Position numbers and translations under genes: made by a program. From assembly GCA_047618115.1 (NCBI GenBank), contig JBLHKV010000001.1, forward strand, positions 267-64,266: a DNA stretch of 64,000 nucleotides, in the 5' to 3' direction. The stretch comes from Halieaceae bacterium (lineage in GTDB: Bacteria; Pseudomonadota; Gammaproteobacteria; Pseudomonadales; Halieaceae). The notes under the pieces were generated by a model. That model saw only the letters and a program-made list of their open reading frames with translations. It was not told the DNA's origin and did no database searches. Below are positions 22,653 through 58,455 of this stretch, piece by piece; position 1 is the first letter of the stretch, and every line of letters starts with the position of its first letter.

Positions 22653-24179
22653 CTATTTGAGGATGTTCGATTGATCGCCAGCCGTCTGTATATCTTTGGC
22701 GTCCTCTTCCAGGATAAATCCGGACTGGAGTGCAGACTGAGTTGCGTCATTCCACGCCGATCTAAAGTTTTCATGGGTTTGGTAAGTTTCGAGCAGTTGT
22801 GCTTCAGTAAATGGCACGGTGATACCAAACAGAAAACAAAACACGCCGGTTCCGCCACTCAGCTGACCTAAGCCGTTGATTCGTGCCACAGGGGCATCGA
22901 CCGCAGGGGTGCGAATACCGCCAAGTACGTTGCCGAATTCGTCCTCTTTGTACACAAGTGGGCTGATACTTACAGTCTCTAGGCGCGACGCGTTGGAAGG
23001 TACTGTGCCATCGACCAGCCAGTTATTCAGTGATCGGATTAAGGCTCGCATGACAAAAGTTGCCGGCCCGGTGTTGATTGGCGTTGCACAGCTGAAGCCG
23101 TCGCTGGGGTCCGACGTTGGATTGCGCATGGATTCGAACCACTCTGCGACCGTCTCTGGCTCTCCCGTATCGTCCTGTGCCTGCATTAATCCATATTGGT
23201 CGAAGTGCGCGGTTCCAGCCACTTCCCATAAACGAAACAATGGGCCGTCGTCTTGGCGGGACACCACACTGCCTTGATCATTCTCATTGGCAAAGACCAT
23301 AACGGGATCGGTGAGATCATCTCGAATGTAAGAGGGCGAAGGAGCTGCCACGGTCTCCAATGGAGACTGGGTCAGTGGCGAACCCGCCCCACTGCGGCTA
23401 TGCACCACAAAGGCGTCGTACACGTCTGCCAGCGGGTGCGCGGCGTTGATATACGTTATGAGACGTCCAGCGGACTGAGATTCTCCTGCAGCCATCACGC
23501 GCTTCGGTATTAGTCCTCCCAGCAACAAGGAAAACTGGTCTCGAACGGCTTGTCCCGCTTGGGAAAATATATCGTAAGAGTAACTGTCACCGGGGTGAAG
23601 TAAGCTTTCGTATCGAACTGGATCTCCCGCAGCTCTGCAACCCGGCCCCGCCATTGGACAGGTGAGCTGTCCTAGCCCGACGGCCTGCGCTGAGACTCCC
23701 ACCCAGGAGTAGCCTTCTCGAATGAGCTCCACATGCATATGTTGCCAGTCGGGGCTTGCGTCTACGCCTCCGCTAACGTTGAACCACTCCACAACAACGG
23801 AACCGTTGAACTTACTGGGATCGATCGGTCGATTCACGACCATCCGTGTTTTATAGAAGGCGGGTGAAAAAGGTTCAACTGACCATTTCCCGTCGCTAAG
23901 GATTGGGTCTACGGGTGTGTAGGCGTCGGCGGTCCCTTCGAAAAAGAATTCTAATTGCTCGTAGCCAACGTCTCCCAAATTAAACGCAGCGTGTCCGAAG
24001 ACCACAGGTATGCCATTTCCTCCGCTGGCAATCGTGACGGACGCTGCCGCAGCTTTTCCGCGCGCCTTCTGAGGATCGGCTGGAGATAACGAATCGCCGC
24101 TATCCGAGCAGGCGCTTAGAAATAGCGCTAGTGCCGCTGCGTAAAAAGAGAACGTGATCATCTTGCTAGTAATATTCAT
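22653..24179 (-). CDS. lipoprotein, alpha/beta-hydrolase-like (function unknown)
   Basis: Start re-called to the ATG at 24179. MNITSKMITFSFYAAALALFLSAC carries a lipobox (LSAC). A possible nucleophile elbow is AAGESQSAGRL. I cannot name the family. Confidence 0.7.
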   Translation of the reverse strand: MNITSKMITFSFYAAALALFLSACSDSGDSLSPADPQKARGKAAAASVTIASGGNGIPVVFGHAAFNLGDVGYEQLEFFFEGTADAYTPVDPILSDGKWSVEPFSPAFYKTRMVVNRPIDPSKFNGSVVVEWFNVSGGVDASPDWQHMHVELIREGYSWVGVSAQAVGLGQLTCPMAGPGCRAAGDPVRYESLLHPGDSYSYDIFSQAGQAVRDQFSLLLGGLIPKRVMAAGESQSAGRLITYINAAHPLADVYDAFVVHSRSGAGSPLTQSPLETVAAPSPSYIRDDLTDPVMVFANENDQGSVVSRQDDGPLFRLWEVAGTAHFDQYGLMQAQDDTGEPETVAEWFESMRNPTSDPSDGFSCATPINTGPATFVMRALIRSLNNWLVDGTVPSNASRLETVSISPLVYKEDEFGNVLGGIRTPAVDAPVARINGLGQLSGGTGVFCFLFGITVPFTEAQLLETYQTHENFRSAWNDATQSALQSGFILEEDAKDIQTAGDQSNILK

Positions 24180-24385
24180 TGTTATGGTCCATTGCGATCG
24201 GCGGGTCAAATGCTTACGCGAGTATATGGTTACTTCCTTTTGGCAGTATAGCCGCTCCCAGCTCCGCTTTATCGTAACGAAATCAACGAGACTGACCCCT
24301 TGATCTACTTGATCTTTTTTGGGATCGTATTGGATCGACGACCACATCGATATATACAGTACCGCCCAGTAGTTGGAGCGCACAC

Positions 24386-26542
24386 CTACTGCACGACCAC
24401 ACCAACTTCCTTGAAGTTTTGCACGAGAGTCAGATTGGCAGGATTCAAGAGTCCGTCGCGCTGCCCATTCACGGTCAGCCGAATGGCGTAAGTGCCCGGC
24501 GCCGGGAAGGTGATCGTGCGGTTGACGTTGACCAGCGGCTGCGGCTTTTCGACGACCGTCGCCGGGTCCGCGGTGCCGGCCACGGTCCAGTTATACTGAA
24601 CGACCTGACCGGTCATCGGCGGCATCTCGATCCTGGCGGCCAGGTTCACTGGCTGATTCACACCGACCACCGCGCGAGCGCCGCCATTGGCTGTGAGGTT
24701 CATCACCGGCTGCAGGCCGTGTCGGTCGGCCGCCTGCGCTGCAGGGACAACCTGGCCATTACGGAGGGTGTAGCTTGTCGAATGCGGCGGCGCGATGCCC
24801 TTCTCGGCCCAGGCCATCAGGTCCTGCATCGACTGCTGGAAGATGCCCGGCTCACCGGCGCCCTTGGCATGGCGACCGTTATCATGGAGGTAGAAGCGCA
24901 TCATGTCGTTGGCCCTGGCAGGTCCCAGGGTCTTCTGAATCCGCTCGGCGTAGCCCACGTTGAAAATAGGCCAGGACAGATGGTCCGCCATGCCTTCCAG
25001 AACCATCACCTTGGTCTTGATATCTCCGGTTTCGATACGGCCGCCCATCGTACGGTAGTTGGAGTACGAGAGCACACTGATGTCCTTCCGCTGGGGGTAT
25101 TTGGCCGACCCGTCGGCATGCCGGTACTGGTCGTGACTACGAACCCCGGGGATGTTGCTGTGGCGCGGGTAGTAGTACATTGCCAGGATGAATCGATTGT
25201 TGATCCGGATCTTGCTGCCGACCCTCAGAGCGTTGAGCAGGACCCGGCTATTAGTAATGGGCGACGTGCCCCCGAAAATATCCTTGTTGGTGCCGATCAG
25301 CGTCAGCGTGCCCGTAGCTGTATCAAGTTTGCCCATAAGGCTGAACCGACGCTTATTGTCTGTAGGGACCCCCACCGCTCGGGCCGGGTCGATCAGGCGC
25401 GTCTTGCCGTCTGCGGCATAGACCCAATACTCCAGATAGTTGTCGCCGGTAGTACCCAGTGCTGGGAACGTCGCCGGATCGAACTGGATCGCGGTCGGCG
25501 CGCCCGCCATGTCGTGGGTGATGCCAGTGATCGTCGCCCAGCCGTCGACATGGGCGGCCCTCAGGTAGTTCGGCGGGTTGGCTCCTGCGTGGCCGGGCCT
25601 GGACCAAAAATCGTCCTCATAGCTTGGGTCCGCGAGGCGGATGTCGATCGGGTCGACGAGGGGCGTGAGCATGGTGAAGTGCTTGCCGATGATTGCGAGA
25701 GGGTATCCGGCGGCGAGAAACTCGTTCAGTACTGACTTCTCCTCCTCATTGAGCCCGGCATAGATGTCGCCCGTGCCGCCCGGGACGGCAGCCGCGGCGA
25801 TTGCGTCGCGCTTCGCTTGGGGAATCGCCATCGTATAGTGCGCCTGCCAGTAGAAAGAGTGGTACGGGGCATCGCCGCTGGTCCCGATACACTGCGGCTG
25901 CACGCCGTCCCATACGCCTGTCACGTTCTCGGCCGCGGCCATCGCCACCGTGCCACCACCGCTGCATCCCCAGAAGTAGCTGTAGGTTTTGGCGGTGTTG
26001 CCGTAGAGCTTGTTGGCATAGGCTTTGGCGACCTTGGTGGCGGCAGCCTCGTGGCGATGGCTCGCGACGGCGTTGGGTACGCTGGCGCTCATCCAGTTCA
26101 CGGAAAAGGCGCCGTTGGTGAAGGCCATCCGATTGTCGACAACGCCTCCCCCGGTCGGATGCTGACCTTCGAAGGAGCGGTTCTGCCAGAATTGCTTTGC
26201 CGGGAACCTCAAGACGTAGTTCTGCTGAAAAGTGGTCGGACTTTGGCGCACGCCGGCGGGCAGGGCTTCCACGGTCTTCGTGGCGGGGAAGTGCCCCGTG
26301 ACCTGGGTGTAGGGAATCAGCGGACCGTCGGGTACCTGCAAGGTCAACTGCTCCGTTGCCGCGATGACGAACGTGTTTTCGTTGTAATCCGGATCGGTGC
26401 AGGTCCCATCGATGAGCAACTGCGGCTCGACACCGGTGTCCCTGTTCATCTGGCTGGCGGGGGCGAACTGGCATGGAGCCGCTACAGCGGGCAATGCAGC
26501 CAGGCCCAGCACGAATGCACTAGCAGCGGCAGCAAATTGCAT
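24386..26542 (-). CDS. exported tannase/feruloyl-esterase-family hydrolase with a C-terminal PKD/Ig-like domain
   Basis: Family motif YFWGCSGGG. Signal peptide MQFAAAASAFVLGLAALPAVAAP if the start is ATG 26542 (the track start 26614 is also possible). C-terminal ..YNWTVAGT..ITFPAPGTYAIRLTVNG. G+C is strikingly high compared with the flanks. Confidence 0.8.
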   Translation of the reverse strand: MQFAAAASAFVLGLAALPAVAAPCQFAPASQMNRDTGVEPQLLIDGTCTDPDYNENTFVIAATEQLTLQVPDGPLIPYTQVTGHFPATKTVEALPAGVRQSPTTFQQNYVLRFPAKQFWQNRSFEGQHPTGGGVVDNRMAFTNGAFSVNWMSASVPNAVASHRHEAAATKVAKAYANKLYGNTAKTYSYFWGCSGGGTVAMAAAENVTGVWDGVQPQCIGTSGDAPYHSFYWQAHYTMAIPQAKRDAIAAAAVPGGTGDIYAGLNEEEKSVLNEFLAAGYPLAIIGKHFTMLTPLVDPIDIRLADPSYEDDFWSRPGHAGANPPNYLRAAHVDGWATITGITHDMAGAPTAIQFDPATFPALGTTGDNYLEYWVYAADGKTRLIDPARAVGVPTDNKRRFSLMGKLDTATGTLTLIGTNKDIFGGTSPITNSRVLLNALRVGSKIRINNRFILAMYYYPRHSNIPGVRSHDQYRHADGSAKYPQRKDISVLSYSNYRTMGGRIETGDIKTKVMVLEGMADHLSWPIFNVGYAERIQKTLGPARANDMMRFYLHDNGRHAKGAGEPGIFQQSMQDLMAWAEKGIAPPHSTSYTLRNGQVVPAAQAADRHGLQPVMNLTANGGARAVVGVNQPVNLAARIEMPPMTGQVVQYNWTVAGTADPATVVEKPQPLVNVNRTITFPAPGTYAIRLTVNGQRDGLLNPANLTLVQNFKEVGVVVQ

Positions 26543-26757
26543 AAGCTTCGACCAAGCAAACAAACGCTCGACCGAAGCTTTCGCGCGAGGGGGTTCAGCG
26601 AGATATTCAACCATGATATTTATCCTTTCCCATTCCTCGACAGCTGGGCATTGCCCTATGCTGCCACACCAAACGCCGCTGCGACTCGAATCATGAAGTG
26701 TAGTTCATTCGATAATCATTGTGCGCCGTCACAACATTCATCGCCACGCAACTCAGG

Positions 26758-29154
26758 TTATCGATCTATACGATAATGGACCGACTCCAGAGTTCCCTGG
26801 AAAGGGAAAGGCGCACGGTACTCTTTGGAAACAGCGGTGCGCTGGTCACGCCCAATATCGAGCCCCTCCCAGGTGCTTTTGGGCACCGGCCGCAGAAACG
26901 GCGCGCTGCCAATGACTTTTCCATCGACAAGTAAGGTCATTTTCCCAGTTCTCAACCCTCGATGTGAGAAACTTCCATCACTGCTCGCTTCGCCGTTTTT
27001 CTCACTCTGTTTATCGTTTTCATCCCGGCTGAATTTTGCCTGCAACTCTATACGACCTTTCGGCAAAGGCTGACTGGAGCGCACCTGCGTGTACTCACCA
27101 CCAATATTGGCACCGTAGTAAAGGTGGTTATCTTTTATGAAGAACGTGTAGCCCACATCGTAGCCCCCCATAGCGGCAAGCACGCCCTCCTGCTCGGTGC
27201 TGTCTCGATCAGCGTTAGCAACAAGAGTGAAGTTACGTCCATAGAGGAGAGGGGCATGGATATTATGAATGGTGTCGGCGCCAGGATTGTAGTCGTAGCG
27301 CTTATAGTTAACGGACCCCATTCGAGCGAGAGAGCGAAAGGCTCGCTTGATTATCGGCTCGTCATGGATCGGTAATACGTTGTAGCGCTCCGCAGCCTCC
27401 CACCATTTCTTTTCGAGGACTTTCACCTTCTCGGGAAATTGTGCGGCAAGGTTGTTGTTTTCCGAAAAATCTTCATTCAAGTTATACAATTCCCAATCGA
27501 CGGAATCATAGGGCTGCCCCGGTTTTATTCGGGTGACTATCTTCCAGCCATCTGCAACATAGGCGCGATTAGCCTCCAACTCATAGTACTGTTCTGTTTT
27601 CCGACTCTTGTGGGGTGATTCATTAAACGTATAGGCCATTGAGGTTCCCTCAATCGGCCGCAGTGACTCACCGCGGAATGAAGCAGGCATGTCGATGCCG
27701 ATTGCTTCAAGAATAGTCGGGGTAATATCGTTTATATGATGAAACTGTGGGCGTATCTCACCGCCCTCCTCTATTCCCTGCGGCCAATGAATAATCAACG
27801 GGTCGCGAACTCCACCACCATGCGTGGTTGCCTTGGCCAACTTGAAAGGTGTATTGCTGACCTGAAGCCAACCGTGGGGATAATTGGGGTGCGTTTCCGG
27901 TCCGCCAATCTTGTCGATGTCGCGCATATTTTTTTCGGTGGTGTCTGCTATCCCATTAAAGTAACGGGTTGCCATTGTAGTGCCGACGGTACCTGTCTCC
28001 TTGCTCGCCCCGTTATCTGAAGTGACGACGATAATCGTGTTGTCCAGCTCTCCCGACTCTTCCAGATAAGCAATCAACTTGCCGATTTGCTGATCGGTAT
28101 TGTCGAGATAGGCCGCGTAGTTTTCCTGCAATCGCGCAGACACAAGCCGCTCGTCATCCGCAAGCTCGGACCACGGCTTTACCTTTGGATAGTGGGGTGT
28201 GAGCTCAGTATTCTCCGGAACAATTCCCAGCGCCTTCTGCTTCGCTAACCTCTTGCTCCTAATGACATCGTAACCCTCGTCGTAACGGCCTCGGTATTTT
28301 TCCCTGTCCCGGGGCAGTGTGTGGTGAGGCGCATGAGTGGCCGTCGTTGCGTAATAGAGAAAAAATGGCTTGCTTCGACTCGCAGCTCGCTGTGCCCTGA
28401 GCATGTCGATCGCCTGCTCTGTTATCGCATCTGGAAAGTAAAAGCTGCCATCCTGCGGGACATCGATCACACGATTACCCTCGTAAACGTACGCGGGATT
28501 CCACTGATTGCTCTCGCCATCAAGTATGCCCCAGAACTGTTCAAACCCACGCTGCATCGGCCAGGAATCGAACGGCCCGGCCGCCGACAGATGTGCCGAG
28601 TTCGTCAAATGCCATTTACCGACCATAAACGTGTTGTAGCCGTTTTCACGCAGGACCTCAGGCAAGGTCATCACGTCACTGCGAATCTCGCCGCGATAGC
28701 CTGGAAATCCGCTGTTCATGTTTGCCAGCCATCCCACACCTGCTGAATGATGGTTCAAGCCGGTCAGGAGAGCCGCCCGAGAAGGAGAACAAACTGCCGT
28801 CGTCGTAAAATTGTTGTAGCGCAGCCCTTCAGCCGAGAGTCTATCGATACCGGGTGTGTTGATTTCAGATCCAAACGCACCAAAATCTGCAAACCCGGTA
28901 TCGTCAAGTATGATGACCAACACATTGGGGGCACTTTCAGGTGCCGAAGGCTCTTGCTCCCAAACAGGCTCTGCGTAACGGCTGGAAGTAGGCTTGGCGC
29001 CTTCGTTTAAAGAAAATGCCAGCTCCGCCCTTACAACAAGAGAACAAAATAAAACGGCCAGCAGTGCGACAGAGAAACTGGTTCCGCTCCTTCCGTTGTT
29101 AGCGCCCGTGGCGACCACCGCCTTGCGAGTAAGATCAAACATATCCTGTGGCAC
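26758..29154 (-). CDS. exported Cys-type (formylglycine) sulfatase, long form (798 aa)
   Basis: CSPSRAALLTGLNHH (C-x-P-x-R). GTG start at 29154 with GGGAGGA 7 nt upstream. Hydrophobic N-terminus. A C-terminal extension of about 250 aa ends in a lectin/ConA-like-looking segment. Confidence 0.93.
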   Translation of the reverse strand: MPQDMFDLTRKAVVATGANNGRSGTSFSVALLAVLFCSLVVRAELAFSLNEGAKPTSSRYAEPVWEQEPSAPESAPNVLVIILDDTGFADFGAFGSEINTPGIDRLSAEGLRYNNFTTTAVCSPSRAALLTGLNHHSAGVGWLANMNSGFPGYRGEIRSDVMTLPEVLRENGYNTFMVGKWHLTNSAHLSAAGPFDSWPMQRGFEQFWGILDGESNQWNPAYVYEGNRVIDVPQDGSFYFPDAITEQAIDMLRAQRAASRSKPFFLYYATTATHAPHHTLPRDREKYRGRYDEGYDVIRSKRLAKQKALGIVPENTELTPHYPKVKPWSELADDERLVSARLQENYAAYLDNTDQQIGKLIAYLEESGELDNTIIVVTSDNGASKETGTVGTTMATRYFNGIADTTEKNMRDIDKIGGPETHPNYPHGWLQVSNTPFKLAKATTHGGGVRDPLIIHWPQGIEEGGEIRPQFHHINDITPTILEAIGIDMPASFRGESLRPIEGTSMAYTFNESPHKSRKTEQYYELEANRAYVADGWKIVTRIKPGQPYDSVDWELYNLNEDFSENNNLAAQFPEKVKVLEKKWWEAAERYNVLPIHDEPIIKRAFRSLARMGSVNYKRYDYNPGADTIHNIHAPLLYGRNFTLVANADRDSTEQEGVLAAMGGYDVGYTFFIKDNHLYYGANIGGEYTQVRSSQPLPKGRIELQAKFSRDENDKQSEKNGEASSDGSFSHRGLRTGKMTLLVDGKVIGSAPFLRPVPKSTWEGLDIGRDQRTAVSKEYRAPFPFQGTLESVHYRIDR

Positions 29155-29157
29155 GCT

Positions 29158-30306
29158 TCAGTCCTCCCTGCCAGGGTCTACCGGGTGGACCTTGAGGTAG
29201 TCCGCGAAATACGGCTCGAGATCCTTTTTACTATAGCCCCACTCTTCCAGCGAGTAAGAGTGCTTGCCAAAGCGGTTCTGCGGGTTTTCCTGCAGCCATT
29301 GTTGCATTCCGGATTCCGCCGCTTGCGTCCACTCATCCCCCAGCCAGCGATAAACTTTTTTCAACGCTGCGACAGGATCTTGCATCAGGTCGTCGTAGTA
29401 CAAGTTGTAAATATCGTCCGGGCGCTGTTTAGCCATCTCCAGCGGGCGCCGCAGATGAAGAGAGAGTTGCAGCGGCCATTTACAGCGCATGTAGTCCGCA
29501 TCGACGCTTTTGTTAAACAGCTTCAGCGCGTTAGCGCGCATGCTGAATGAACTGGCAAAAGCCGCATAGGGGTCGCGGTGAGTCCAGATCACCTTCGCGT
29601 CGGGGAAGGTGCTGAATACATAGGGGATAAACACGGAGTCGGAAGGCATCTTCAACACCCAACGCCCCGGGTTCCTGGTTTGAAGTACCTGCAGCGCCCG
29701 CTTGCGGTGTTCGTAAGCTGAGCTCATGTCGCAATCCAGCAACCAGTCCGCATAGATGGGAGTCGGCGTCATCGCCATAAACATCATGGAACGGAAATCC
29801 TGGGCGAGCAGGTGGACGCATTCGGTGGGACCGTCTGCGGGTTCGAAGTGGGTTTTCACCCCGTCTGGGTTTTGCTTGATGATCTGCTCGTCAAAAGACT
29901 TTTCGGCCACGCAACGCTCGTCGCTGCGCAGCGCTCCGGGCGCGGCGGGTGGCGCCACGTTATTGGCTTCCCAGCGCAGCATGGAGCGGTTGGCCGGATC
30001 CGCGTCCATCAGGTAACTGGTCATGGTAGTACCGGTGCGCACCAGGCCGAGGATAATTACCGGCCGCTTGATGGGGTTCTCCAGCACATCCGGATGCTGG
30101 CGGATGTGCTCGTCAACGCGCATTCGATTGACCAGTGCGCCAACGTAGCGGCCTTTCAGCCTCTGCTCTCCCTGCTCGGTCAACAACTGCGAGCGAGCGT
30201 GATCACGAAGGAGAATCCCCAACCCCTCCTGCCAGGTATCCCTTTCCGGGTCGGGTAGCTGTGCAGTCTCGCGAGCGGACCGCACAATTTCGTCAAATGT
30301 CAGCAT
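29158..30306 (-). CDS. PAPS-type sulfotransferase family protein (paralog 2 of 3)
   Basis: Start re-called to the ATG at 30306 (GGAGG 6 nt upstream, inside the preceding gene). GLVRTGTTMTSYLM and IWTHRDPYAAFASSFS. No signal peptide. Confidence 0.85.
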   Translation of the reverse strand: MLTFDEIVRSARETAQLPDPERDTWQEGLGILLRDHARSQLLTEQGEQRLKGRYVGALVNRMRVDEHIRQHPDVLENPIKRPVIILGLVRTGTTMTSYLMDADPANRSMLRWEANNVAPPAAPGALRSDERCVAEKSFDEQIIKQNPDGVKTHFEPADGPTECVHLLAQDFRSMMFMAMTPTPIYADWLLDCDMSSAYEHRKRALQVLQTRNPGRWVLKMPSDSVFIPYVFSTFPDAKVIWTHRDPYAAFASSFSMRANALKLFNKSVDADYMRCKWPLQLSLHLRRPLEMAKQRPDDIYNLYYDDLMQDPVAALKKVYRWLGDEWTQAAESGMQQWLQENPQNRFGKHSYSLEEWGYSKKDLEPYFADYLKVHPVDPGRED

Positions 30307-31333
30307 GCTTGCCTCCGCCTCTCTCTGGTGTGGCGCATACCGCGCGCAGCGCATACCAGTCCATCGCATCATTTACTGTCTCGGCTACTGGTCTGGGATT
30401 CCAGTGCAAATCGCGACGGGCCTTACTGTTATCCATTTCCTTAAACGCAGCAGATAAAAACACTGCGTCTTTACTCAACATCGAATCTTTAATAGCAAAC
30501 AGCTTGATAAATACCTCGGCCACACTAGTGACAGCAACGGCGACTCCATGCGGGATGAAGCGCAAAGCTTCATGCTCGCCCCATGTAGTGGCCAGCCCGT
30601 AGAGATCGCGGTTACTAATGTACTCGTTCGCAATAATGTAACGCTCACCAATGTGACCATTTGTCTCTGCTGATATTGCCGCCGCTGCCACATCGCGAAT
30701 ATCCACCATTGGCGCACTGGTATCCATAGCGCGCGTTGCCTTCCCCGAACCCGCTTGCCACAGCGCTCCACCGTGAGGCGTGGGCTGATAGTCTTGAGGG
30801 CCATACGTATTTGCTACACACAGAGCAACACCCGGCAGCCCTTTGTGTTCGCAGTAGTCCATAAAGCGCTCCTCTGCTTGGAGGCGAGCGAGAATGTAAG
30901 CTGAAGCCTTGTCGCGCCAGTTAAATTCAATCTCTTCGGTAACCGCACCATTGGCGTTAAATCCCAGCGTACCCATGGTGCTGGTGAAGATAAAATGCTG
31001 AATGCCGCAAGCCAGCGCTGCATCCATCGCATTCACTAACCCATCCACATTGTTCTGATAAAGAGGCGTTGGATCTGACAACCAGAAACGCGCGTCCACA
31101 ACACTGTAAAAAACCGAGCTGCAGCCCTGCATTGCGACGCGCAGGGATTCCGGGTCCAACACATCACCGTAGTAAATTTCTACCGGCAAATCCTGCACGG
31201 CTTCTACGCTGCTGGTCTTGCGCAACAGCACGCGGACTTTGCGCCCGGCGCTGACTAACGCTCTGGCCGTGTGACTACCTACAAAGCCACTTGCGCCCGC
31301 TACCAGTACTGGCTTCTCGTCCGGGGTTTTCAT
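30293..31333 (-). CDS. extended-SDR NAD-dependent epimerase/dehydratase family, 3beta-hydroxysteroid dehydrogenase/isomerase-like
   Basis: 346 aa. PVLVAGASGFVGSHTARALVSAGRKVRVLLRK. Its ATG overlaps the upstream sulfatase stop (ATGA at 31330..31333). Confidence 0.8.
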   Translation of the reverse strand: MKTPDEKPVLVAGASGFVGSHTARALVSAGRKVRVLLRKTSSVEAVQDLPVEIYYGDVLDPESLRVAMQGCSSVFYSVVDARFWLSDPTPLYQNNVDGLVNAMDAALACGIQHFIFTSTMGTLGFNANGAVTEEIEFNWRDKASAYILARLQAEERFMDYCEHKGLPGVALCVANTYGPQDYQPTPHGGALWQAGSGKATRAMDTSAPMVDIRDVAAAAISAETNGHIGERYIIANEYISNRDLYGLATTWGEHEALRFIPHGVAVAVTSVAEVFIKLFAIKDSMLSKDAVFLSAAFKEMDNSKARRDLHWNPRPVAETVNDAMDWYALRAVCATPERGGGKHADI

Positions 31334-33705
31334 TTCGCAGGCAGTTTGAGCTTTACCTCAACCTTGTTAATCTGGCCGTTAAACACACCCTCGTGACTGT
31401 AATCCGGTGAAACTGGAACGTTAGTATCGCGCCCCGTATCGAAGGTCTCGCCATTTCCAGCCAGCATTTTCGGACGCTTGGCGATGCGGCCATTGGCCAC
31501 TTTTTTGCCATCAACAAAAATACTCATTGACCCTCCGGTGGCGTCGGTACTATTAAAATCAAACTTGATTCGATGCCGCCCGGGAGAGAGCGGATGTACG
31601 GCAGCAACTCTGGATTGAGCACCGGGCAGTGGTAAGCCGGATACAGAGGCGTAAGCTACCGGTTTGCCTGCGTCCAGGTAAAAGCTCCAACCGCCAAACT
31701 TACTGCCTGCTGCTGTTATGACACCTCTGCCGCCCTCCGCCGGTATTTCCACATCGGCCTCGAGACTGAATGGAAGGTAAAACATGGGCGGCGCGACACC
31801 GAACTGCAGTTGGATGCCCTCACCCCAATAAACGTAATGCATGCGCGGCATTTCCCCGGAGGCACTGGCAGCCGCCCTTCCCCGTATCTGGCCACCCGCA
31901 TCCTGTAGCGGATAAACATTGTACTTGCGAGCTTCCCTATCAAATATTCCCTGCAGCTCTTTCAGCTTTTGCGGATGGCTAGCTGCGATATTAGTGCTCT
32001 GACTAAAATCTTCGCGCAGATTGTACAATTCCCAGGTGTAGGTAGAGGTATCTGTCGGTTGCTGCACTGGCATATCCCAGGACATATTGCGCGGGGTCGT
32101 ATTCGCCAGCCAGCCGTCGTGATAAATCCCGCGGTTCCCGTGAATTTCGTAGTACTGGGTAACGCGGGTTGACGCTGCACCCGCATTGTCGAAGCTGTAA
32201 AACATGCTGACACCATCGATCGGTTGCTGCTCAACCCCATCGACTCGATCCGGCGCTTTCACACCTGCCGCTTCTAACAGCGTTGGCATCACATCGATCA
32301 CATGATGGTACTGACTTCTCAATTGATCCTGCTGCGTGATACGCGCCGGCCAGGAGATAACCATTCCGTTGCGCATACTGCCCAGATGCGAAGCAATTTG
32401 TTTGAACCAGGGGAAAGGCGTATCTGTGGCAAGGGCCCATCCGATCTGATAACCCTGGTAGGTGTCCTCACCTCCAAGAACATCCAGGTGATCGGCCAGC
32501 CAGTTCACGTCAATTCCATGCACGCCAGTGGAAAGATCAATCATCTCATTCACGGTACCGGCAACACTGCCTTCGCCACTGGAACCGTTATCGCCCTGGA
32601 GGAAAAGCACCAGAGTGTTATCCGCAAGGCCCATTCGTTCCAGCTCATCCATAAGGCGACCGAACTGAGCGTCCTGATAGGCCAGCTGGGCTGTGTAGAC
32701 TTCCATGAAGCGCGCGAACACTTTTTGTTGTTTTATGGTCAGGCCGTCCCAGGCCGGAACCTGCTCCGGCCGGGGTGCAAGTAGCGTATCGGTGGGAATC
32801 ACACCCATTGATTTCTGGCGCTCCAGAATAATCTCTCGCTCTACATCCCAGCCGTGGTCGAACTTCCCGTGAAATCGGGCAATCCAGTCGGCGGGTGCCT
32901 GGTGAGGAGCGTGCGCAGAACCGGGAGCGTAGTAAATAAAGAATGGCTTGTCGGGGGCAGCGGCTTTCTGATTGTGAATCCAGTTGATGGCTTTGTCCGC
33001 TAACTCTGCATCTAACAAATATCCCTGTGGACGATTCGGGTCCGCAACCGGGCTAATACCTTCGTACAGTGCCGGTTGCCACTGGTCGGAATCACCCGCG
33101 ATAAACCCATAAAAATATTCGAACCCGCGCCCCGTAGGCCACTGATCAAAAGGCCCCGCGGGAGATCTTTCGCGTTGAGGTATATTGTGATCCTTGCCGA
33201 ACATGGCAGTGCTGTAGCCGTTGTCGCGCAAAATTCTGGCTACAGTCGCTGCAGAAGGAGGGATATGTGCGGTATAGCCAGGAAAGGATGTGGGAATGTC
33301 CACCAACGTGCCCAAGCCTACGGCGTGGTGATTGCGGCCTGTTAGCAGAGCGGCTCTTGTGGGGGAACAAAGTGCAGTGGTGTGGAACTGATTGTACAGC
33401 AACCCGCGCTGCGCCAATCGGTCCAGAGTCGGTGTCGGGGCGGGCCCACCAAAGGTACTGGTCGAAGCAAAACCAACGTCATCAGTCATCACCAGCAGAA
33501 TGTTTGGTGCATTTTTCGGGGCTTTTATCTCCGCAAGATTGAACGGCGTAGATTCAGTTTCACTGGGTTCAAGATTCCCCCGAAAGGTGTTGTACGGAAT
33601 CGGTAGAACACTTCGGCCAACAGACTCTGGTACCTGGGAGTAGGCGGGAAACCCGACAAAAAACGACTGCAGTAAAAACGCGGCAACCAGTGCTGAAAAT
33701 CTCAT
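31330..33705 (-). CDS. exported Cys-type (formylglycine) sulfatase, long form (791 aa)
   Basis: CSPTRAALLTGRNHH. Start re-called to the ATG at 33705 (MRFSALVAAFLLQSFFVGFPAYSQ signal peptide; GGAG 7 nt upstream). C-terminal extension as in 26758..29154. Confidence 0.93.
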   Translation of the reverse strand: MRFSALVAAFLLQSFFVGFPAYSQVPESVGRSVLPIPYNTFRGNLEPSETESTPFNLAEIKAPKNAPNILLVMTDDVGFASTSTFGGPAPTPTLDRLAQRGLLYNQFHTTALCSPTRAALLTGRNHHAVGLGTLVDIPTSFPGYTAHIPPSAATVARILRDNGYSTAMFGKDHNIPQRERSPAGPFDQWPTGRGFEYFYGFIAGDSDQWQPALYEGISPVADPNRPQGYLLDAELADKAINWIHNQKAAAPDKPFFIYYAPGSAHAPHQAPADWIARFHGKFDHGWDVEREIILERQKSMGVIPTDTLLAPRPEQVPAWDGLTIKQQKVFARFMEVYTAQLAYQDAQFGRLMDELERMGLADNTLVLFLQGDNGSSGEGSVAGTVNEMIDLSTGVHGIDVNWLADHLDVLGGEDTYQGYQIGWALATDTPFPWFKQIASHLGSMRNGMVISWPARITQQDQLRSQYHHVIDVMPTLLEAAGVKAPDRVDGVEQQPIDGVSMFYSFDNAGAASTRVTQYYEIHGNRGIYHDGWLANTTPRNMSWDMPVQQPTDTSTYTWELYNLREDFSQSTNIAASHPQKLKELQGIFDREARKYNVYPLQDAGGQIRGRAAASASGEMPRMHYVYWGEGIQLQFGVAPPMFYLPFSLEADVEIPAEGGRGVITAAGSKFGGWSFYLDAGKPVAYASVSGLPLPGAQSRVAAVHPLSPGRHRIKFDFNSTDATGGSMSIFVDGKKVANGRIAKRPKMLAGNGETFDTGRDTNVPVSPDYSHEGVFNGQINKVEVKLKLPAK

Positions 33706-33761
33706 AAACACTCCAGGAATTTTGCTTGTTGACACCTAACCTCACACCGAGACTGGCCGCC

Positions 33762-34505
33762 CTAACTAAACTGATAGGACTCGAGAAAATCGCCGAAGGC
33801 TCTTACCAACCGCGCTGCGTCCGCACCGTTGATTACCCGATGGTCATAACTCAACGACAGCGGCAGCAGTTTGCGCAGCTCCGGCTTCTCCTCTGCATCA
33901 GGCACGAAGCGCTCCTGAGTGCGAGTGATACCGAGTATCGCCACTTCCGGGGCATTGATGATCGGCGTAAAAGCAGTACCACCAATATGTCCCAACGATG
34001 ACAGGGTAAAACAACCGCCCGACATTTCCGTCATGGCCAGACCCTTGCCGCGTGCTTTGTCAGAAAGCGCAACAATATCTTCGGCAATTTCATCAAGATT
34101 TTTTTTATCACAATCGCGCACTACGGGAACCAGCAAACCGCCGGGCACATCAACCGCAAAACCAATATGGTAGTACTGTTTGGTGTAGAGCGTTGTTCCA
34201 TCGGCACTGAGTGAACTGTTGTACTGCGGGTATTGCTGCAGAGCCGACACAGCGGCCTTCATCAGCACCGGTAACAAGGTTCTCTTGCGCTCCAGGTTGG
34301 CAACATTCCATGCCTTGCGGCGTTCTTCAAAGCTGCTGATATCAACATCATCATGATGTGTCACATGCGGAATGGAATTCCAGTTGCGGTGCATAACACG
34401 GCCAACATGTTGCTGGACGCGCCCCAGCTTTGCAGCTTCAACCGGGCCATAGACAGAAAAGTCTTCTTCTGGCCAAGGCAGCGAGGGCGGTGTTTTCTCG
34501 CTCAT
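33762..34505 (-). CDS. stand-alone 2-oxoacid dehydrogenase E2-type acyltransferase catalytic domain (no lipoyl or E1/E3-binding domains)
   Basis: 247 aa, collinear with E2 cores (..IPHVTHHDDVDIS..HIGFAVDVPGGLLVPVVRD..GGCFTLSSLG..PEVAILG..LSLSYDHRVINGADAARL). The catalytic His is present. The Asp of the DHRxxDG motif is Asn here. Confidence 0.85.
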   Translation of the reverse strand: MSEKTPPSLPWPEEDFSVYGPVEAAKLGRVQQHVGRVMHRNWNSIPHVTHHDDVDISSFEERRKAWNVANLERKRTLLPVLMKAAVSALQQYPQYNSSLSADGTTLYTKQYYHIGFAVDVPGGLLVPVVRDCDKKNLDEIAEDIVALSDKARGKGLAMTEMSGGCFTLSSLGHIGGTAFTPIINAPEVAILGITRTQERFVPDAEEKPELRKLLPLSLSYDHRVINGADAARLVRAFGDFLESYQFS

Positions 34506-34536
34506 CGCGAAGTCTCCTTCACTGTCCCGGCAGCCA

Positions 34537-35790
34537 TCAAATGCGCTCGATGATCATCGCAGGTGCCATACCACCCGCAGCACACATGGTTATAAGCCCA
34601 TAGCGCCCACCGGTGCGCTCCAGTTCATCCAGCGCCGTACCTATTAAAATTGCTCCGGTTGCAGCGATAGGATGACCCAGCGCCATAGAGCCGCCATTCA
34701 CATTCACCTTTTCACGGTCGAGATCGAGGTCGCGAATGAACTTCTCGACCACCACGGCAAAGGCTTCATTCACTTCCCAAATATCAATATCCTCTTTACT
34801 CAAGCCGGCCTTTGCGAGCACTTTTTCAGCCGCAGGCACGGGGGCGTTAAGCATTAGCGTTGGATCGTCGCCGACATTGGCCATGGCAACAATACGCGCA
34901 CGCGGCTTCAGCCCGTGTTTTTCTGCGTAGTCTTTCGAGGCCAGTACGATGGCAGCCGCGCCATCGACAACACCAGAGGAGATACCAACGTGGTGCAGCG
35001 GCTTGATCTCCAGGTCCGGGTATTTTTGCTTGATCAATTCGACATAGGTTAAGCCATCGGGCTGCGACGGCATGTTGTAGAACATTTCGAATGCGGGTTT
35101 GAGTCCGGCCATACTCTCCAGCGTGGTTTCCGGGCGGGGATATTCCTCGTGATCCAGAAGTACATTGCCATCGTCGTCGCGCACGGTAATTGTTGATTTG
35201 TCGAAGCGGCCCTCTTCAATCGCTTTCGCCGCACGTCGTTGGCTCTCTACACCCAGCACTTCAAGTTCTTCGCGCGTGATTCCCTCCATCGCGGCAACCG
35301 CATCTGCACAGACTCCCTGGTTTGACTGCGGATGCACTGCCTGCAACCTCGGGTTACCCACGCCCATGCCGAGGGAGCCAACGCCAGCTTCACGCTGCTT
35401 CATACCGAACATAGTGACATAGGAGAGCATCTCCGAGCCTCCGGCAATCACCAGATCTTCCATACCCGACATGATCTGGCCGGCGGCAAGACTGGTGGCG
35501 GTGAGGCCACTGCCGCAGAAACGATTAAGCGTTACCCCGCTTGCACGGATATCGTAGCCCGCATCTAGCGCCGCCATGCGGCCGACGTCTCCCGCCTGCA
35601 GGCCAATCTGGCCCGAAACTCCCCAAATAACATCGTCTACATCTGCCGTATTGAGCCCGTTGCGCTCCTGAACAGCCGTGAGCACGGTTGCAGCGAGGTG
35701 TTCCGGGTGCATCTGTGACAGTGCGCCCTTGCCCATCTTGCCAAGCCCTCGCGGGGTGCGGACCGCATCGATGATATACGCTTCAGACAT
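34537..35790 (-). CDS. acetyl-CoA C-acyltransferase (degradative thiolase)
   Basis: Start re-called to the ATG at 35790 (GGAGAG upstream). NRFCGSGL active-site Cys. GHPIAATG. C-terminal MCAAGGMA. Confidence 0.92.
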   Translation of the reverse strand: MSEAYIIDAVRTPRGLGKMGKGALSQMHPEHLAATVLTAVQERNGLNTADVDDVIWGVSGQIGLQAGDVGRMAALDAGYDIRASGVTLNRFCGSGLTATSLAAGQIMSGMEDLVIAGGSEMLSYVTMFGMKQREAGVGSLGMGVGNPRLQAVHPQSNQGVCADAVAAMEGITREELEVLGVESQRRAAKAIEEGRFDKSTITVRDDDGNVLLDHEEYPRPETTLESMAGLKPAFEMFYNMPSQPDGLTYVELIKQKYPDLEIKPLHHVGISSGVVDGAAAIVLASKDYAEKHGLKPRARIVAMANVGDDPTLMLNAPVPAAEKVLAKAGLSKEDIDIWEVNEAFAVVVEKFIRDLDLDREKVNVNGGSMALGHPIAATGAILIGTALDELERTGGRYGLITMCAAGGMAPAMIIERI

Positions 35791-35949
35791 AAGACTCTCC
35801 ATAGGTAAAATGACCTCGCAATGGCGCAAGCCAAACGAGAAAAACTATACACCCACGATAACCCTTATTCAACATTGTTGTTTATAATGAAACCAAAACG
35901 CGGCATAGTGGTTATCCAGCATCTGACTGTGTGGACGACAGGAGCTTCA

Positions 35950-39245: not shown

Positions 39246-40613
39246 ATGAGCGAAGCCGCTAGTTCTCCAGCCAACATCGCCCCTTATCCGTCACCTGCGG
39301 TAGGCTGGTATGCAACGATTATTCTCGCCCTGCTCTACTGGCTTTCCATTCTGGATCGCTTCATCATTTCGCTGCTGGTTGACCCTATCAAGCGAGACAT
39401 GGGCATTACCGACATACAGTTCAGCCTGCTGCATGGTTTTGCCTTCGCCATTACTTTTTCGCTGTTCGGATTGGTGGCCGGCTCAATGGCAGATCGTTTC
39501 AGTCGACGTTGGGTGATATTTGCCAGCGTGTCTATCTGGTCGCTAGCCACTGCGGCCTGCGGTGTGGCGCAAACGTTCTGGCACTTGTTGCTGGCGCGCG
39601 TTGGCGTAGGCGCCGGTGAAGCAGGATTGAACCCGAGTGCGACTTCCATGCTCGCTGATCTATTCCCACGCGACAAACTGACTTCAGCCACAGCCGTTTA
39701 CACCATCGGTGCCACTGTTGGTTCGGGTACGGCCTACCTCTTCGGCGGCTATATTGTTGATCTGGTTTCACAGGTCGATATCTATACCCTGCCGCTCATC
39801 GGCGAGATTCGCTCCTGGCAGGCCGTGTTTTTTATTGTCGGGGTGCCGGGTGCATTGCTCTCATTTATTATTTTCACGTTCCCAGAACCGGCGCGCAGAA
39901 ACCGCATGGAGGTGACAGACAACGCCAACGGCCGCAGAAGTTTATTCGACTCATACGGTAAGTTGATAACGTTTATGCGCACTCACCCGCGCTTTTTCGC
40001 CTGCCACTACAGCGGGTTTATGTTCGCCTCCTTTATTTTGGTAGGCGGAGCCGCCTGGTATCCTGCGCACATGGCCAGGACTTTCGGCTGGGACGCAGGC
40101 CAAATTGGACTGACCCTTGGCCTCACACTGGTAGCCTCGGGGATTTCCGGAAAACTGATTTGCGGCTATAGCGTAGACGCCATGTATCGTCGCGGCCGTC
40201 GAGATGCCCAACTGCGTTGGTATGCTATCTGTCTGCTCATCGGCGCACCTATAGGCATACTCGCCACCACCAGTGGAAACCCCTGGGTTTTCCTGGCCGG
40301 AACCGGCGTGTTTTTGATCCTCCTGTCGTCGCTGCCAACCTGCTACTCTTCCGCCCTTAACCTCGTTACACCCAACGAACTGCGTGGTGCCGGGATTGCC
40401 TTTTTCTCAGCGACAGCTGGACTTATCGGCATGGCTGTTGGCCCGTTTCTGATCGCGTTCATATCCGATCGCTTTCTGGACGGCCCGTCTAGCATAGGTA
40501 TGGCGATAGCAATCATGATGGCAATATTCTGCCCTCTGGCTGCAGCTATTCTTGGGCTAGGATGTCGCGCGATGCGTGAGGTGGCCGCTGTCGCAGAACA
40601 GAATGATACTTGA
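39246..40613 (+). CDS. MFS transporter
   Basis: 455 aa, about 12 hydrophobic segments. MFS loop motif GSMADRFSRRW. Confidence 0.88.
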   Translation: MSEAASSPANIAPYPSPAVGWYATIILALLYWLSILDRFIISLLVDPIKRDMGITDIQFSLLHGFAFAITFSLFGLVAGSMADRFSRRWVIFASVSIWSLATAACGVAQTFWHLLLARVGVGAGEAGLNPSATSMLADLFPRDKLTSATAVYTIGATVGSGTAYLFGGYIVDLVSQVDIYTLPLIGEIRSWQAVFFIVGVPGALLSFIIFTFPEPARRNRMEVTDNANGRRSLFDSYGKLITFMRTHPRFFACHYSGFMFASFILVGGAAWYPAHMARTFGWDAGQIGLTLGLTLVASGISGKLICGYSVDAMYRRGRRDAQLRWYAICLLIGAPIGILATTSGNPWVFLAGTGVFLILLSSLPTCYSSALNLVTPNELRGAGIAFFSATAGLIGMAVGPFLIAFISDRFLDGPSSIGMAIAIMMAIFCPLAAAILGLGCRAMREVAAVAEQNDT

Positions 40614-43595: not shown

Positions 43596-44756
43596 TTAAT
43601 CCCTCGCCAACAACAGGGCTGTTGCCAGTGGCCCGCCGCCGGACGTGGCAACGGCCAAGCGCGGATCACCGGGAATCTGGCGGTCGCCGCCCAGCCCTCG
43701 CAGCTGCACCACAGCTTCATGTGCAAAACCGAAACCGTGTAGCCGACCCCCTCCCAACTGACCGCCAAACGTATTCAGCGGCAGCTCGCCGTCGAGTGCG
43801 ATCCTCTGCCCTCCTTCAATAAACTTGCCGCCTTCTCCGCGTGGGCAGAAGCCCAGTGCTTCCAGCCAGGCGATGGCCTGGAAACTGAAGCCATCGTAAA
43901 GCTGCACCGTATCAACATCCGCAGGTGTGTAGTCTGTTTGCGTCCAGAGATGTTCTCCGGTGGGGTAACAGGCCATCCACTCTGCCTGGTCCCAACTGTG
44001 TCTCTCCACTGCGCCTGCCATCGCGGCAATGCGAACTGGAGTACAGGTGACTTCGTCCACCGCTTCTCCTGCGGACACAATCAGCACAGTAGATGCGTCC
44101 GTATAGCGGTCACAGTCATACAGACAAAGTGGCGATGAGATCATGCGCGCAGACATGTATTCATCCATGCTCAAAGGCTCGCGCACCAGGGCACGCGGGT
44201 TGAGCATCGCATTGGCCCGCCCGGTGAGAGCAATCTGCGCCATCTGTTCGCGGGTTAATCCATATTTTTTGAAGTGGCCCATGGCGTACTGTGCGGTCCA
44301 GTTGGCCGCGGAAATAGCATTGAAAGGGGCTAGCCACTGTGAATATCCGTCCACACGGTCACGCCGCTGCACTGGGTATTCTTCCGGGCGGTCCAGGGCC
44401 GCCGCCTCGTACACGGTGCGGTAACAGATGACATGTCGCGCCTGGCCGGTGCGCACAGCGGCTGCCGCTGCTGTAACCGCACCTAACTGCGAGCTAATCT
44501 CCATACCGCCGGCGTACCAGGTGACGTTAAGTCCCAGAGCGTCAATCAACTCATCGCTACCAACCGGAGAAAAGCCCAGCATTGCTGCGACCCGACCGGG
44601 GTACGTCGAAACCCCGTCGATCTGGTCGATCGTCAGCCCGGATTCGGCCAGCGCTTCTTTCACTGCATCCACGGTGAGCAATAGTGGAGCGCGCTGCACC
44701 TTCCTGCCAACTTCAGACTGTCCAATTCCAGTTATAAAGGCTTCGTTTGCAGTCAT
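43596..44756 (-). CDS. thiolase-fold protein, SCP-x / lipid-transfer-protein (Ltp) type
   Basis: Start re-called to the ATG at 44756 (1 nt after the DUF35 gene stop). MTANEAFITGIGQSEVGRK.. with thiolase-like N- and C-terminal halves. Paired with a DUF35 protein, as in BbsAB- or Ltp2/ChsH2-type systems. Confidence 0.8.
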   Translation of the reverse strand: MTANEAFITGIGQSEVGRKVQRAPLLLTVDAVKEALAESGLTIDQIDGVSTYPGRVAAMLGFSPVGSDELIDALGLNVTWYAGGMEISSQLGAVTAAAAAVRTGQARHVICYRTVYEAAALDRPEEYPVQRRDRVDGYSQWLAPFNAISAANWTAQYAMGHFKKYGLTREQMAQIALTGRANAMLNPRALVREPLSMDEYMSARMISSPLCLYDCDRYTDASTVLIVSAGEAVDEVTCTPVRIAAMAGAVERHSWDQAEWMACYPTGEHLWTQTDYTPADVDTVQLYDGFSFQAIAWLEALGFCPRGEGGKFIEGGQRIALDGELPLNTFGGQLGGGRLHGFGFAHEAVVQLRGLGGDRQIPGDPRLAVATSGGGPLATALLLARD

Positions 44757-44757
44757 A

Positions 44758-57370: not shown

Positions 57371-57383
57371 TTCTGAATTTTTC

Positions 57384-58451: not shown

Positions 58452-58455
58452 TACC

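Follow-up and report, generated by a model that had tools for sequence, protein, structure and literature searches.

Class I sulfatases act by S-O cleavage and retain the configuration of the substrate, and the enzyme of Pseudomonas aeruginosa takes sec-alkyl sulfates as well (PMC5870055). Sulfotransferases have been described from mycobacteria, where the stf3-cyp128 operon makes sulfated menaquinone (PMC6469627) and where the Mycobacterium tuberculosis gene Rv3529c adjoins the oxidoreductase gene Rv3530c within a list of the cholesterol gene cluster (PMC6429209). Sterol sulfates are produced by marine diatoms (PMC5670183) and invertebrates (PMC8145587). Here, a stretch of 64,000 nucleotides (nt) from contig JBLHKV010000001.1 of a Halieaceae bacterium, referred to as the window, was analysed. 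It harbors a block of six consecutive minus-strand genes, in which two sulfatases are combined with a sulfotransferase dependent on 3'-phosphoadenosine 5'-phosphosulfate (PAPS), an extended short-chain dehydrogenase/reductase (SDR), a thiolase and an acyltransferase core of the pyruvate dehydrogenase (PDH) E2 type. This block is a lineage-specific join of modules that occur apart elsewhere. Its genes are, in the order of reading:

34537-35790, minus strand: thiolase (acetyl-CoA C-acyltransferase, PRK06025 subfamily; Thiolase_N/Thiolase_C and PRK06025), predicted to be cytoplasmic, first gene of the string
33762-34505, minus strand: stand-alone PDH-type E2 acyltransferase catalytic core of 247 amino acids (aa; PF00198)
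31330-33705, minus strand: sulfatase A, putatively exported class I sulfatase (CSPTR) similar to P. aeruginosa arylsulfatase (PAS), with a predicted C-terminal laminin-G/ConA-like domain (PF00884 and match to 1HDH)
30293-31333, minus strand: HpnA-like extended SDR, called "3beta-HSD-like" in the initial annotation, predicted to be cytoplasmic (Epimerase/3Beta_HSD/NAD_binding_10)
29158-30306, minus strand: Stf9-like PAPS-type sulfotransferase (Sulfotransfer_3), predicted to be cytoplasmic (PF13469 and match to 2Z6V)
26758-29154, minus strand: sulfatase B, second putatively exported class I sulfatase (CSPSR) with the same predicted C-terminal domain (PF00884)

Both sulfatases match PF00884 over the full length of the profile (205 bits for sulfatase A and 221 bits for sulfatase B). 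The formylglycine motif, C/S-x-P-x-R followed by xxxTG, is present as CSPTRAALLTGR in sulfatase A and as CSPSRAALLTGL in sulfatase B, and the combination of domain and CxPxR/TG motif places both proteins in class I (S1) of the formylglycine-dependent sulfatases. The closest solved structure is that of PAS (1HDH), which aligns with residues 66-586 of sulfatase A (E 5e-60). The motifs coincide with the PAS segment SPTRSMLLTG, and the preceding residue in the deposited 1HDH chain is an alanine, the site of the modified formylglycine. The alkaline-phosphatase-type fold and the Cys-type CxPxR motif are shared with PAS/AtsA, and S-O cleavage is expected for the enzymes of the window. They differ from PAS/AtsA by a signal-peptide-like N-terminus and a C-terminal laminin-G/ConA-like domain of about 200 aa. 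The N-terminus of sulfatase A, MRFSALVAAFLLQSFFVGFPAYSQ, was judged to be signal-peptide-like by eye. By the same inspection, such N-termini are found in sulfatase B and in the tannase-like and Abhydrolase_10 proteins encoded downstream, and not in the thiolase, the E2 core, the SDR and the sulfotransferase.

The initial annotation had given both sulfatases about 790-800 aa, which was confirmed along with full-length homology; they share 35% identity over 750 residues including the extension. Their length, pointed out there as about 250 aa beyond that of classical arylsulfatases, is not a special feature, since the long form is common (at least 8,000 scored homologue hits, mostly of about 800 aa among those listed). 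The listed homologues are called arylsulfatase wherever a source names them, and a protein identical to sulfatase B is annotated as an arylsulfatase A-like enzyme in a Halieaceae metagenome-assembled genome (MAG). The mycobacterial arylsulfatases AtsA and AtsD, with about 780 aa, resemble the sulfatases of the window in overall length class and co-occur with Stf-type sulfotransferases in one organism. The guess of a lectin/ConA-like C-terminal segment was right: an AlphaFold (AF2) model of the extension of sulfatase A (residues ~596-791) reached a mean predicted local distance difference test (pLDDT) value of 90.3, and the best Foldseek matches of this model were CBM40, laminin-G, pentraxin and botulinum-toxin (clostridial) Hc domains (E ~3e-6, template modelling score 0.5-0.6). 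The extension is therefore predicted to be a ConA-like/laminin-G jelly roll, and several sulfatase homologues carry PF13385.

Cys-type sulfatases, to which both proteins belong by their CxPxR motif, require a maturase. Domain scans found neither a formylglycine-generating enzyme nor a radical-SAM maturase of the anaerobic sulfatase-maturating type (anSME) among the ORFs (open reading frames) of at least 134 aa in the window. The corresponding statement of the initial annotation holds in this respect; the absence itself is uninformative, since the coverage is that of one MAG contig of 64.4 kb, nearly all of which is in the window. In M. tuberculosis, a gene for the formylglycine-generating enzyme presumably adjoins atsA, and the window holds none.

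The sulfotransferase matches PF13469 (Sulfotransfer_3) with 130 bits, and its matches in the PDB are 2Z6V (E 2e-86) and 2ZQ5 (E 4e-41), which we take to be Stf9 of Mycobacterium avium and Stf1 of M. tuberculosis, respectively; Rv3529c is presumably the gene of this Stf1 (2ZQ5). The PAPS-binding motifs R-T-G-T-T and H-R-D-P…S are invariant in 24 aligned sequences. Thus domain, 5'-phosphosulfate loop and 3'-phosphate motif of PAPS-dependent sulfotransferases are all present in the sequence. The family is large, comprising 536 clusters at E <=0.001, the best 120 of these 536 being 62-90% identical. We know of no member with a known acceptor. With the mycobacterial Stf proteins (2Z6V, 2ZQ5 and Stf3 of cyp128-stf3), the sulfotransferase has the Sulfotransfer_3 fold and the PAPS-binding motifs in common, as well as the pairing with an oxidoreductase or monooxygenase in a lipid-type context (PMC6469627, PMC6429209). 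In contrast, the host is here a gammaproteobacterium, the neighborhood is catabolic, and the gene is joined to those of apparently exported sulfatases.

The SDR is matched by the Pfam families Epimerase (90 bits), 3Beta_HSD (PF01073, 61 bits) and NAD_binding_10. Among the NCBIfam models, HpnA scores highest (228 bits, cutoff 368) and that of the sterol C4-demethylase reductase SdmB gives 132 bits (cutoff 600); the protein stays below every curated NCBIfam cutoff. The closest PDB match is 3WJ7 (E 8e-47), for which no relevant paper was found in the literature; more distant relatives are cinnamoyl-CoA, dihydroflavonol, kavalactone and vestitone reductases (E 1e-9 to 1e-12). The protein contains the motif GASGFVG and shows Y-I-L-A-R where SDRs normally have the catalytic YxxxK. 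This YxxxR is invariant in 30 of 30 aligned family members (54-83% identical to the SDR of the window; loci L008-L046 plus the window), and its arginine aligns with the lysine of 3WJ7. Compared to HpnA (TIGR03466, "hopanoid-associated sugar epimerase"), 3WJ7 and PF01073, the extended-SDR fold, GxxGxxG and the S/T…Y catalytic positions are kept. What differs is the score below the HpnA cutoff, the YxxxR motif and the neighborhood, which consists of acyl-CoA genes and not of hopanoid, sugar-nucleotide or steroid-ring genes. An assignment as 3beta-hydroxysteroid dehydrogenase (3beta-HSD)/isomerase was rejected because Epimerase outscores PF01073, HpnA is the best model and YxxxR stands in place of YxxxK. 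Likewise, a nucleotide-sugar epimerase/dehydratase was dismissed, as GalE reaches 55 bits at a cutoff of 262 and a sugar-nucleotide context is missing among the recurrent neighbour families sampled from the SDR loci.

The thiolase contains the Pfam domains Thiolase_N/Thiolase_C and scores 744 bits against PRK06025 (cutoff 568). The E2-like protein consists of the 2-oxoacid_dh catalytic domain alone (PF00198, 233 bits, residues 22-244) and aligns over the whole core with the E2p core of Azotobacter vinelandii (1EAA, E 2e-67). With its intact active-site motif DHRVING it possesses the catalytic core and DHRxxDG-type site of an E2 component. The catalytic core of PDH E2p is kept throughout, including the DHRxxxG motif. 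In contrast to E2p, the 247-aa protein lacks the lipoyl and the peripheral-subunit (E1/E3)-binding domains, no E1 or E3 genes are found in the window, and its partner is a thiolase, often with a TetR gene in between. Its three closest representative clusters are stand-alone proteins of 252-256 aa, and most other hits listed are full-length E2 proteins. The order thiolase-(TetR)-E2 core recurs in four loci of related genomes (L012, L016, L019 and L051). At the recurrent pair a TetR gene usually lies between the two genes and a gene for a TonB-dependent receptor (TBDR) upstream; both are missing at the pair of the window (33762-35790).

On the level of the DNA, the six genes are closely spaced. 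The ORF table lists them as 34537-35829, 33762-34505, 31330-33735, 30293-31333, 29158-30372 and 26758-29154, and the starts were read from the sequence. The thiolase starts at ATG 35790, preceded by GGAGAG, and stops with TGA at 34539-34537. The spacer of 31 nt to the E2 core contains the Shine-Dalgarno (SD) sequence GAAGGAG, and the E2 core extends from ATG 34505 to the TAG at 33764-33762. After a gap of 56 nt, sulfatase A begins with ATG 33705; an upstream GTG at 33735 is possible as an alternative start, and the ATG is favoured by a 98%-identical homologue (P0121), which with 791 aa matches it. The stop of sulfatase A and the start of the SDR overlap in ATGA (31333-31330). The ATG of the sulfotransferase (30306-30304) lies 14 nt within the SDR gene, which ends with its stop codon at 30295-30293, and the SD sequence of the sulfotransferase, GGAGG (30316-30312), located five bases ahead of the ATG, is also inside the SDR gene. 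This start is shared by 21 homologues, which begin at the same M-(L/T)-F-D-E-I-V position. Between the TGA of the sulfotransferase (29160-29158) and the GTG of sulfatase B (29154) 3 nt remain, and the SD sequence GGGAGGA of sulfatase B (29168-29162) is inside the sulfotransferase gene.

The six genes, their family assignments and all junctions of the initial annotation (+31, +56, ATGA, 14-nt overlap, +3) were thereby reproduced from the sequence. The stoichiometric co-expression deduced from them does not follow, since such overlaps are routine on this contig: 17 of the 41 same-strand neighbour pairs of the window have junctions of <=10 nt, and the median gap is 31 nt (counted with longest-ORF starts, and with sequence-read starts within and beside the block). 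The coupling is real but ordinary for this contig. As the gene identities and junctions are correct, an operon-like arrangement of the six genes is likely.

The conservation of the block was followed in a genome scan with the SDR, which gave 41 loci from Halieaceae, Pseudomaricurvus, Spongiibacteraceae, Nevskiales, Ketobacter and Sphingomonas, onto which the proteins of the window were mapped. The genomes with the nearest counterparts of the SDR and sulfatase A are those of Halieaceae and other Cellvibrionales. In a Halieaceae MAG (L007), the E2 core, sulfatase A and the SDR are together, and in Pseudomaricurvus hydrocarbonicus (L019) the order is thiolase-TetR-E2-sulfatase A-SDR. In two further loci thiolase-TetR-E2 lies upstream of the SDR with no sulfatase, directly in L012 and with a molybdopterin oxidoreductase gene in between in L016. 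The recurrent neighbour families of the SDR sampled from these loci (ten scanned) are AMP-/acyl-CoA ligases, acyl-CoA dehydrogenase, MaoC-like hydratase, CoA-transferase, SDRs and TetR. A sulfotransferase or sulfatase B adjoins the SDR in none of the 41 loci, and the idea of a conserved six-gene unit was rejected.

Relatives of the sulfotransferase with 81-85% identity occur in sulfotransferase-SDR-dehydrogenase-MFS (major facilitator superfamily) operons, in one case with AraC and metallo-beta-lactamase (MBL)-fold genes upstream. Another relative stands beside an NAD_binding_2 dehydrogenase and a TBDR gene, again with an AraC and an MBL-fold gene upstream. The relatives of sulfatase B (75-76% identity) have an MFS neighbour or stand by themselves, without an adjoining sulfotransferase gene, and the order SDR-sulfotransferase-sulfatase B is repeated only in short contigs identical to the window. 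Of the whole block, only the pairs thiolase-E2 core and sulfatase A-SDR recur in related genomes. Three modules can be distinguished: the thiolase with the stand-alone PDH-E2-type acyltransferase core; the PAS-like class I sulfatase, apparently exported and with a laminin-G-like C-terminal domain, together with the HpnA-like extended SDR; and the Stf9-like PAPS sulfotransferase with the second such sulfatase of the same architecture.

A metagenome scan with the sulfotransferase alignment, in which the matches listed were mostly weak and partial, provided about 19 usable loci. Among the 27 loci of the family, a zinc-dependent alcohol dehydrogenase (Zn-ADH) or SDR gene lies within about 120 nt of the sulfotransferase in 11 (12 adjacencies, with both sulfotransferases of L005). 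A gene for an alkylsulfatase-like MBL-fold protein is found within 3 kb of the sulfotransferase in 13 of the 27 loci, or 12 of 26 if the near-duplicates L060 and L061 are counted once, and within about 111 nt in 7; in the control, the SDR loci from similar genomes, it is present in 3 of 41. The 13 loci with the MBL-fold gene are L003, L004, L005, L048, L049, L054-L056, L060, L061, L064, L066 and L122. The window has other, non-orthologous proteins in the same three roles, an extended SDR and class I sulfatases. Such a non-orthologous replacement argues that sulfation and desulfation are functionally linked with redox chemistry on a single substrate. Nothing relevant to a described sulfotransferase-sulfatase-dehydrogenase module was found in the literature.

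The MBL-fold partners are proteins of about 410 aa. They share the MBL fold and the alkylsulfatase dimerisation domain with the class III alkylsulfatases SdsA1, Pisa1 and YjcS, a likeness that is of relevance for the protein encoded at 55997-57391 of the window as well. In contrast to these enzymes, the partners have no SCP2 domain, and in place of the metal motif HxHxDH they show the degenerate forms QxHxNQ or QxHxDH, so that a sulfatase activity cannot be assumed. The matches to SdsA1/Pisa1/YjcS are weak (E 2e-17 to 9e-10), and together with the degenerate metal motif this means that the partners may not be sulfatases. The idea of a class III "inverting sulfatase" as partner is weakened by the degenerate motif. 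Most partners are without an obvious signal peptide, whereas the sulfatases of the window look exported. Near some sulfotransferase operons, genes for GH79-like and GH3 glycoside hydrolases and for a GFO/IDH/MocA oxidoreductase were observed (L048 12617-14224, L122 1550-3784, L005 7479-8543). Due to these, the acceptor of the sulfotransferase may be of sugar type or glycosylated.

The string of minus-strand genes continues beyond sulfatase B, and further features belong to the surroundings of the block:

24386-26614, minus strand: tannase/feruloyl-esterase-like hydrolase with PKD domain, apparently exported (Pfam Tannase, PKD)
22653-24383, minus strand: Abhydrolase_10 hydrolase and presumed lipoprotein (…LFLSACSDSG), with which the same-strand string ends (PF20091, 438 bits)
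35844-35872, minus strand: promoter-like -35/-10 pair, TTGAAT-17-TATAGT (consensus scan), upstream of the thiolase gene
4839-5984, minus strand: sulfotransferase paralogue 1, 32% identical to the copy of the block, divergent from an SDR-Zn-ADH pair and outside the operon
48682-49851, minus strand: sulfotransferase paralogue 3, 30% identical, between luciferase-like monooxygenase and TIM-barrel genes
55997-57391, minus strand: alkylsulfatase-like MBL-fold protein with QxHxDH for HxHxDH and a lipoprotein-like N-terminus, a context gene

The tannase-like gene begins 143 nt downstream of sulfatase B on the same strand, and a terminator scan found no terminator-like site in this gap; it is a probable member of the operon. 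The Tannase match of its product is partial (41 bits, residues 185-275). With both hydrolases (22653-26614) included, the operon probably comprises eight genes rather than six. The promoter-like pair sits between the thiolase gene and the divergent ferredoxin-reductase gene and is weak evidence, because this region has fewer such sites than its shuffled versions. In general, the promoter and terminator scan gave sites no more numerous than in shuffled sequence. A search for operator-like inverted repeats ahead of the thiolase gene was negative, and no Rfam family matched anywhere in the 64-kb window.

The block is embedded in a catabolic island. Besides a TBDR, MFS transporters and two TetR regulators, the window encodes two luciferase-like monooxygenases and two P450s accompanied by a ferredoxin reductase. 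Further products are an acyl-CoA ligase, enoyl-CoA hydratases, a CoA-transferase, a DUF35 (ChsH2-type OB-fold)/thiolase-like pair (43596-45162), a KstD-like flavoprotein (54314-55993; 648 bits, cutoff 789) and acyl-CoA dehydrogenases, the genes of which form two pairs (57384-62931). A Rieske oxygenase is closest to the GbcA/anthranilate types and matches VanA_C weakly. The KstD-like protein, the DUF35/thiolase-like pair and the paired acyl-CoA dehydrogenases resemble enzymes acting on steroid side chains or rings but fall short of equivalog level, which suggests that the substrate is alicyclic or isoprenoid. No steroid-like gene of the window reaches an NCBIfam equivalog cutoff, and a canonical 9,10-seco steroid cluster was rejected, since equivalogs of KshA, Hsa and Tes are missing from the window and the KstD-like protein stays below its cutoff.

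Three Sulfotransfer_3 paralogues, 30-32% identical and each beside redox enzymes, are present in this single island of 64 kb. An MFS transporter with weak similarity to the OATP organic-anion transporters is encoded at 39246-40613 of the window and recurs in two other loci, in L124 (6552-7937) immediately upstream of the gene for a sulfatase B relative and in L051 (5919-7313) in the vicinity of a sulfotransferase relative. On the plus strand, an ORF of 164 aa (4298-4792) matches only positions 98-240 of a profile for a xylose-isomerase-like TIM barrel, which is the C-terminal part. An ORF of 96 aa (3993-4283, plus strand) lies just upstream, and tblastn over 3993-4792 found the C-terminal part alone; a frameshift, a split of the gene or an error of the assembly may lie behind this.

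Taken together, the six genes and probably the two downstream esterase-like genes may form one unit for the processing of sulfate esters of hydrophobic alcohols within a lipid/alicyclic catabolic island, a reading to which we assign a probability of roughly 0.45. Here, sulfated and partly acylated hydrophobic alcohols of sterol, terpenoid, alkyl or phenolic type would arrive in the periplasm, where the two paralogous sulfatases would strip the sulfate by S-O cleavage, probably at different positions or from different substrates, with the laminin-G-like domain aiding substrate binding. The esterase-like enzymes would take off the acyl groups. The free alcohol would then enter the cell, and the SDR would oxidise or reduce the exposed hydroxyl or carbonyl group, while thiolase and E2-type acyltransferase would handle the resulting acyl-CoA units. 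The sulfotransferase might re-esterify a hydroxyl of a cytoplasmic intermediate that is made or used by the adjacent dehydrogenase, the sulfate serving as handle or for activation.

Several points weigh against this proposal. The modules are non-syntenic elsewhere, which weakens the case for a functional unity of all six genes, and that they form one transcription unit is deduced from the gene arrangement. A cytoplasmic sulfotransferase that feeds periplasmic class I sulfatases would be chemically pointless, since these cleave S-O with retention; on the same hydroxyl, both activities would amount to a futile cycle. Export is likewise a judgement from N-termini by eye. Genes for PAPS synthesis and CysQ are absent from the window, as is that of a maturase. 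Furthermore, the substrate class cannot be read from the sequence: the flavonoid/cinnamoyl-CoA reductase relatives of the SDR and the tannase-like hydrolase fit phenolic sulfates equally.

The scheme of the initial annotation, in which a sterol 3-sulfate first loses its sulfate and is then converted at C3 by oxidation and isomerisation, can be spelled out with a 3beta-HSD/isomerase for the C3 steps and the thiolase in beta-oxidation of the side chain. It can draw on the hits of the SDR to PF01073 and SdmB and on the KstD-like flavoprotein, the ChsH2/Ltp-like pair and the paired acyl-CoA dehydrogenases of the island. Moreover, sterol sulfates occur in marine diatoms (PMC5670183), and Rv3529c stands beside Rv3530c in the list of the M. 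tuberculosis cholesterol cluster (PMC6429209). However, the SDR scores better against Epimerase and HpnA, remains under all cutoffs and carries YxxxR, its neighbours in the 41 loci are generic acyl-CoA enzymes, equivalog-level steroid-ring genes (KshA, Hsa, Tes) are missing, and the sulfotransferase is left without explanation. This scheme is possible without having any specific support, and we consider it unlikely. Its own remark that the sulfotransferase has no obvious place in it touches a real puzzle and the most interesting part of the finding. If instead the exported enzymes attack phenolics in sulfated or esterified form, for instance phenolic sulfates from algae or seagrasses and esters of the feruloyl or galloyl type, the SDR would act like a flavonoid/cinnamoyl-CoA reductase and the thiolase would shorten a phenylpropanoid side chain. 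This would be in line with an arylsulfatase as closest solved sulfatase structure, the tannase/feruloyl-esterase-family hydrolase downstream, the plant-type reductases among the PDB relatives of the SDR and the weak VanA_C match of the Rieske oxygenase. Since aliphatic and alicyclic acyl-CoA enzymes dominate the island, ring-cleavage dioxygenases are absent from the window, the plant reductase matches are distant and the Tannase match is partial, phenolics appear improbable as the common substrate.

Two further explanations start from the sulfotransferase. Sulfation could be an activation step, by which a hydroxyl that is not oxidisable or has the wrong configuration is turned into a sulfate leaving group. 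A partner enzyme of sulfatase type would then remove this group under inversion or by elimination, leaving a product for the adjacent dehydrogenase. Class III sulfatases indeed cleave C-O with inversion (PMC5870055), the association with a dehydrogenase and an MBL-fold protein is seen on many unrelated contigs, and most of these MBL-fold partners lack an obvious signal peptide. The partners in the window, however, are apparently exported class I sulfatases, with which S-O cleavage and retention would make the step futile, the degenerate QxHxNQ/QxHxDH motif leaves it doubtful that the MBL-fold partners are sulfatases, and PAPS would be a costly activating agent for catabolism; such a role is very unlikely. 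By analogy to sulfomenaquinone, sulfotransferase and SDR might also make a sulfated lipid or surfactant of the cell itself, which the periplasmic sulfatases would recycle or regulate. The mycobacterial Stf proteins as closest characterised relatives, among them Stf3, whose operon with cyp128 yields sulfated menaquinone (PMC6469627), the monooxygenase genes beside the sulfotransferase paralogues of the window and the MFS genes adjoining sulfotransferase operons would fit. This is highly improbable given the catabolic surroundings (TBDR, TetR/AraC regulators, beta-oxidation genes), the lack of lipid-biosynthesis or PAPS-supply genes nearby and the presence of three paralogues within one catabolic island. 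Finally, there may be no shared pathway at all but a compact run of co-transcribed, unrelated catabolic genes for separate substrates. Synteny is kept for gene pairs at most and tight junctions are normal on this contig, as would be expected in that case; the recurrence of a sulfotransferase/dehydrogenase/sulfatase-type trio via non-orthologous replacement is, on the other hand, hard to credit to chance packing, and the chance that this view is right seems small.

All enzyme families of the block are known, to which its proteins add new members, and annotations of the long sulfatase form are widespread; new is the arrangement as a variant, and no description of the recurring trio was found in the literature. 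The specific finding is modest, as it concerns a local arrangement of known families, and the trio is the part worth following. The finding brings to light bacterial PAPS sulfotransferases that form a large, highly conserved family and are associated time and again with dehydrogenases and sulfatase-type proteins in catabolic islands. The role of Stf-type sulfotransferases and of the long Ats-type sulfatases has been open since they were catalogued in mycobacteria. A broader proposal, speculative and with a rather slim chance of being correct, would be that marine and soil gammaproteobacteria, and perhaps mycobacteria, routinely use PAPS-dependent sulfation in the catabolism of hydrophobic alcohols, with the sulfate ester as an obligatory intermediate, either leaving group or solubilising handle, and a module of Stf, NAD(P) dehydrogenase and sulfatase-type protein. 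If this is true, the window would represent a variant of the module, in which exported class I sulfatases and an extended SDR replace the MBL-fold protein and the Zn-ADH or SDR. Cultivable relatives that harbor the modules, such as Pseudomaricurvus and Halioxenophilus, would make the question experimentally approachable, and the answer bears on the marine turnover of sulfated lipids and sterols.

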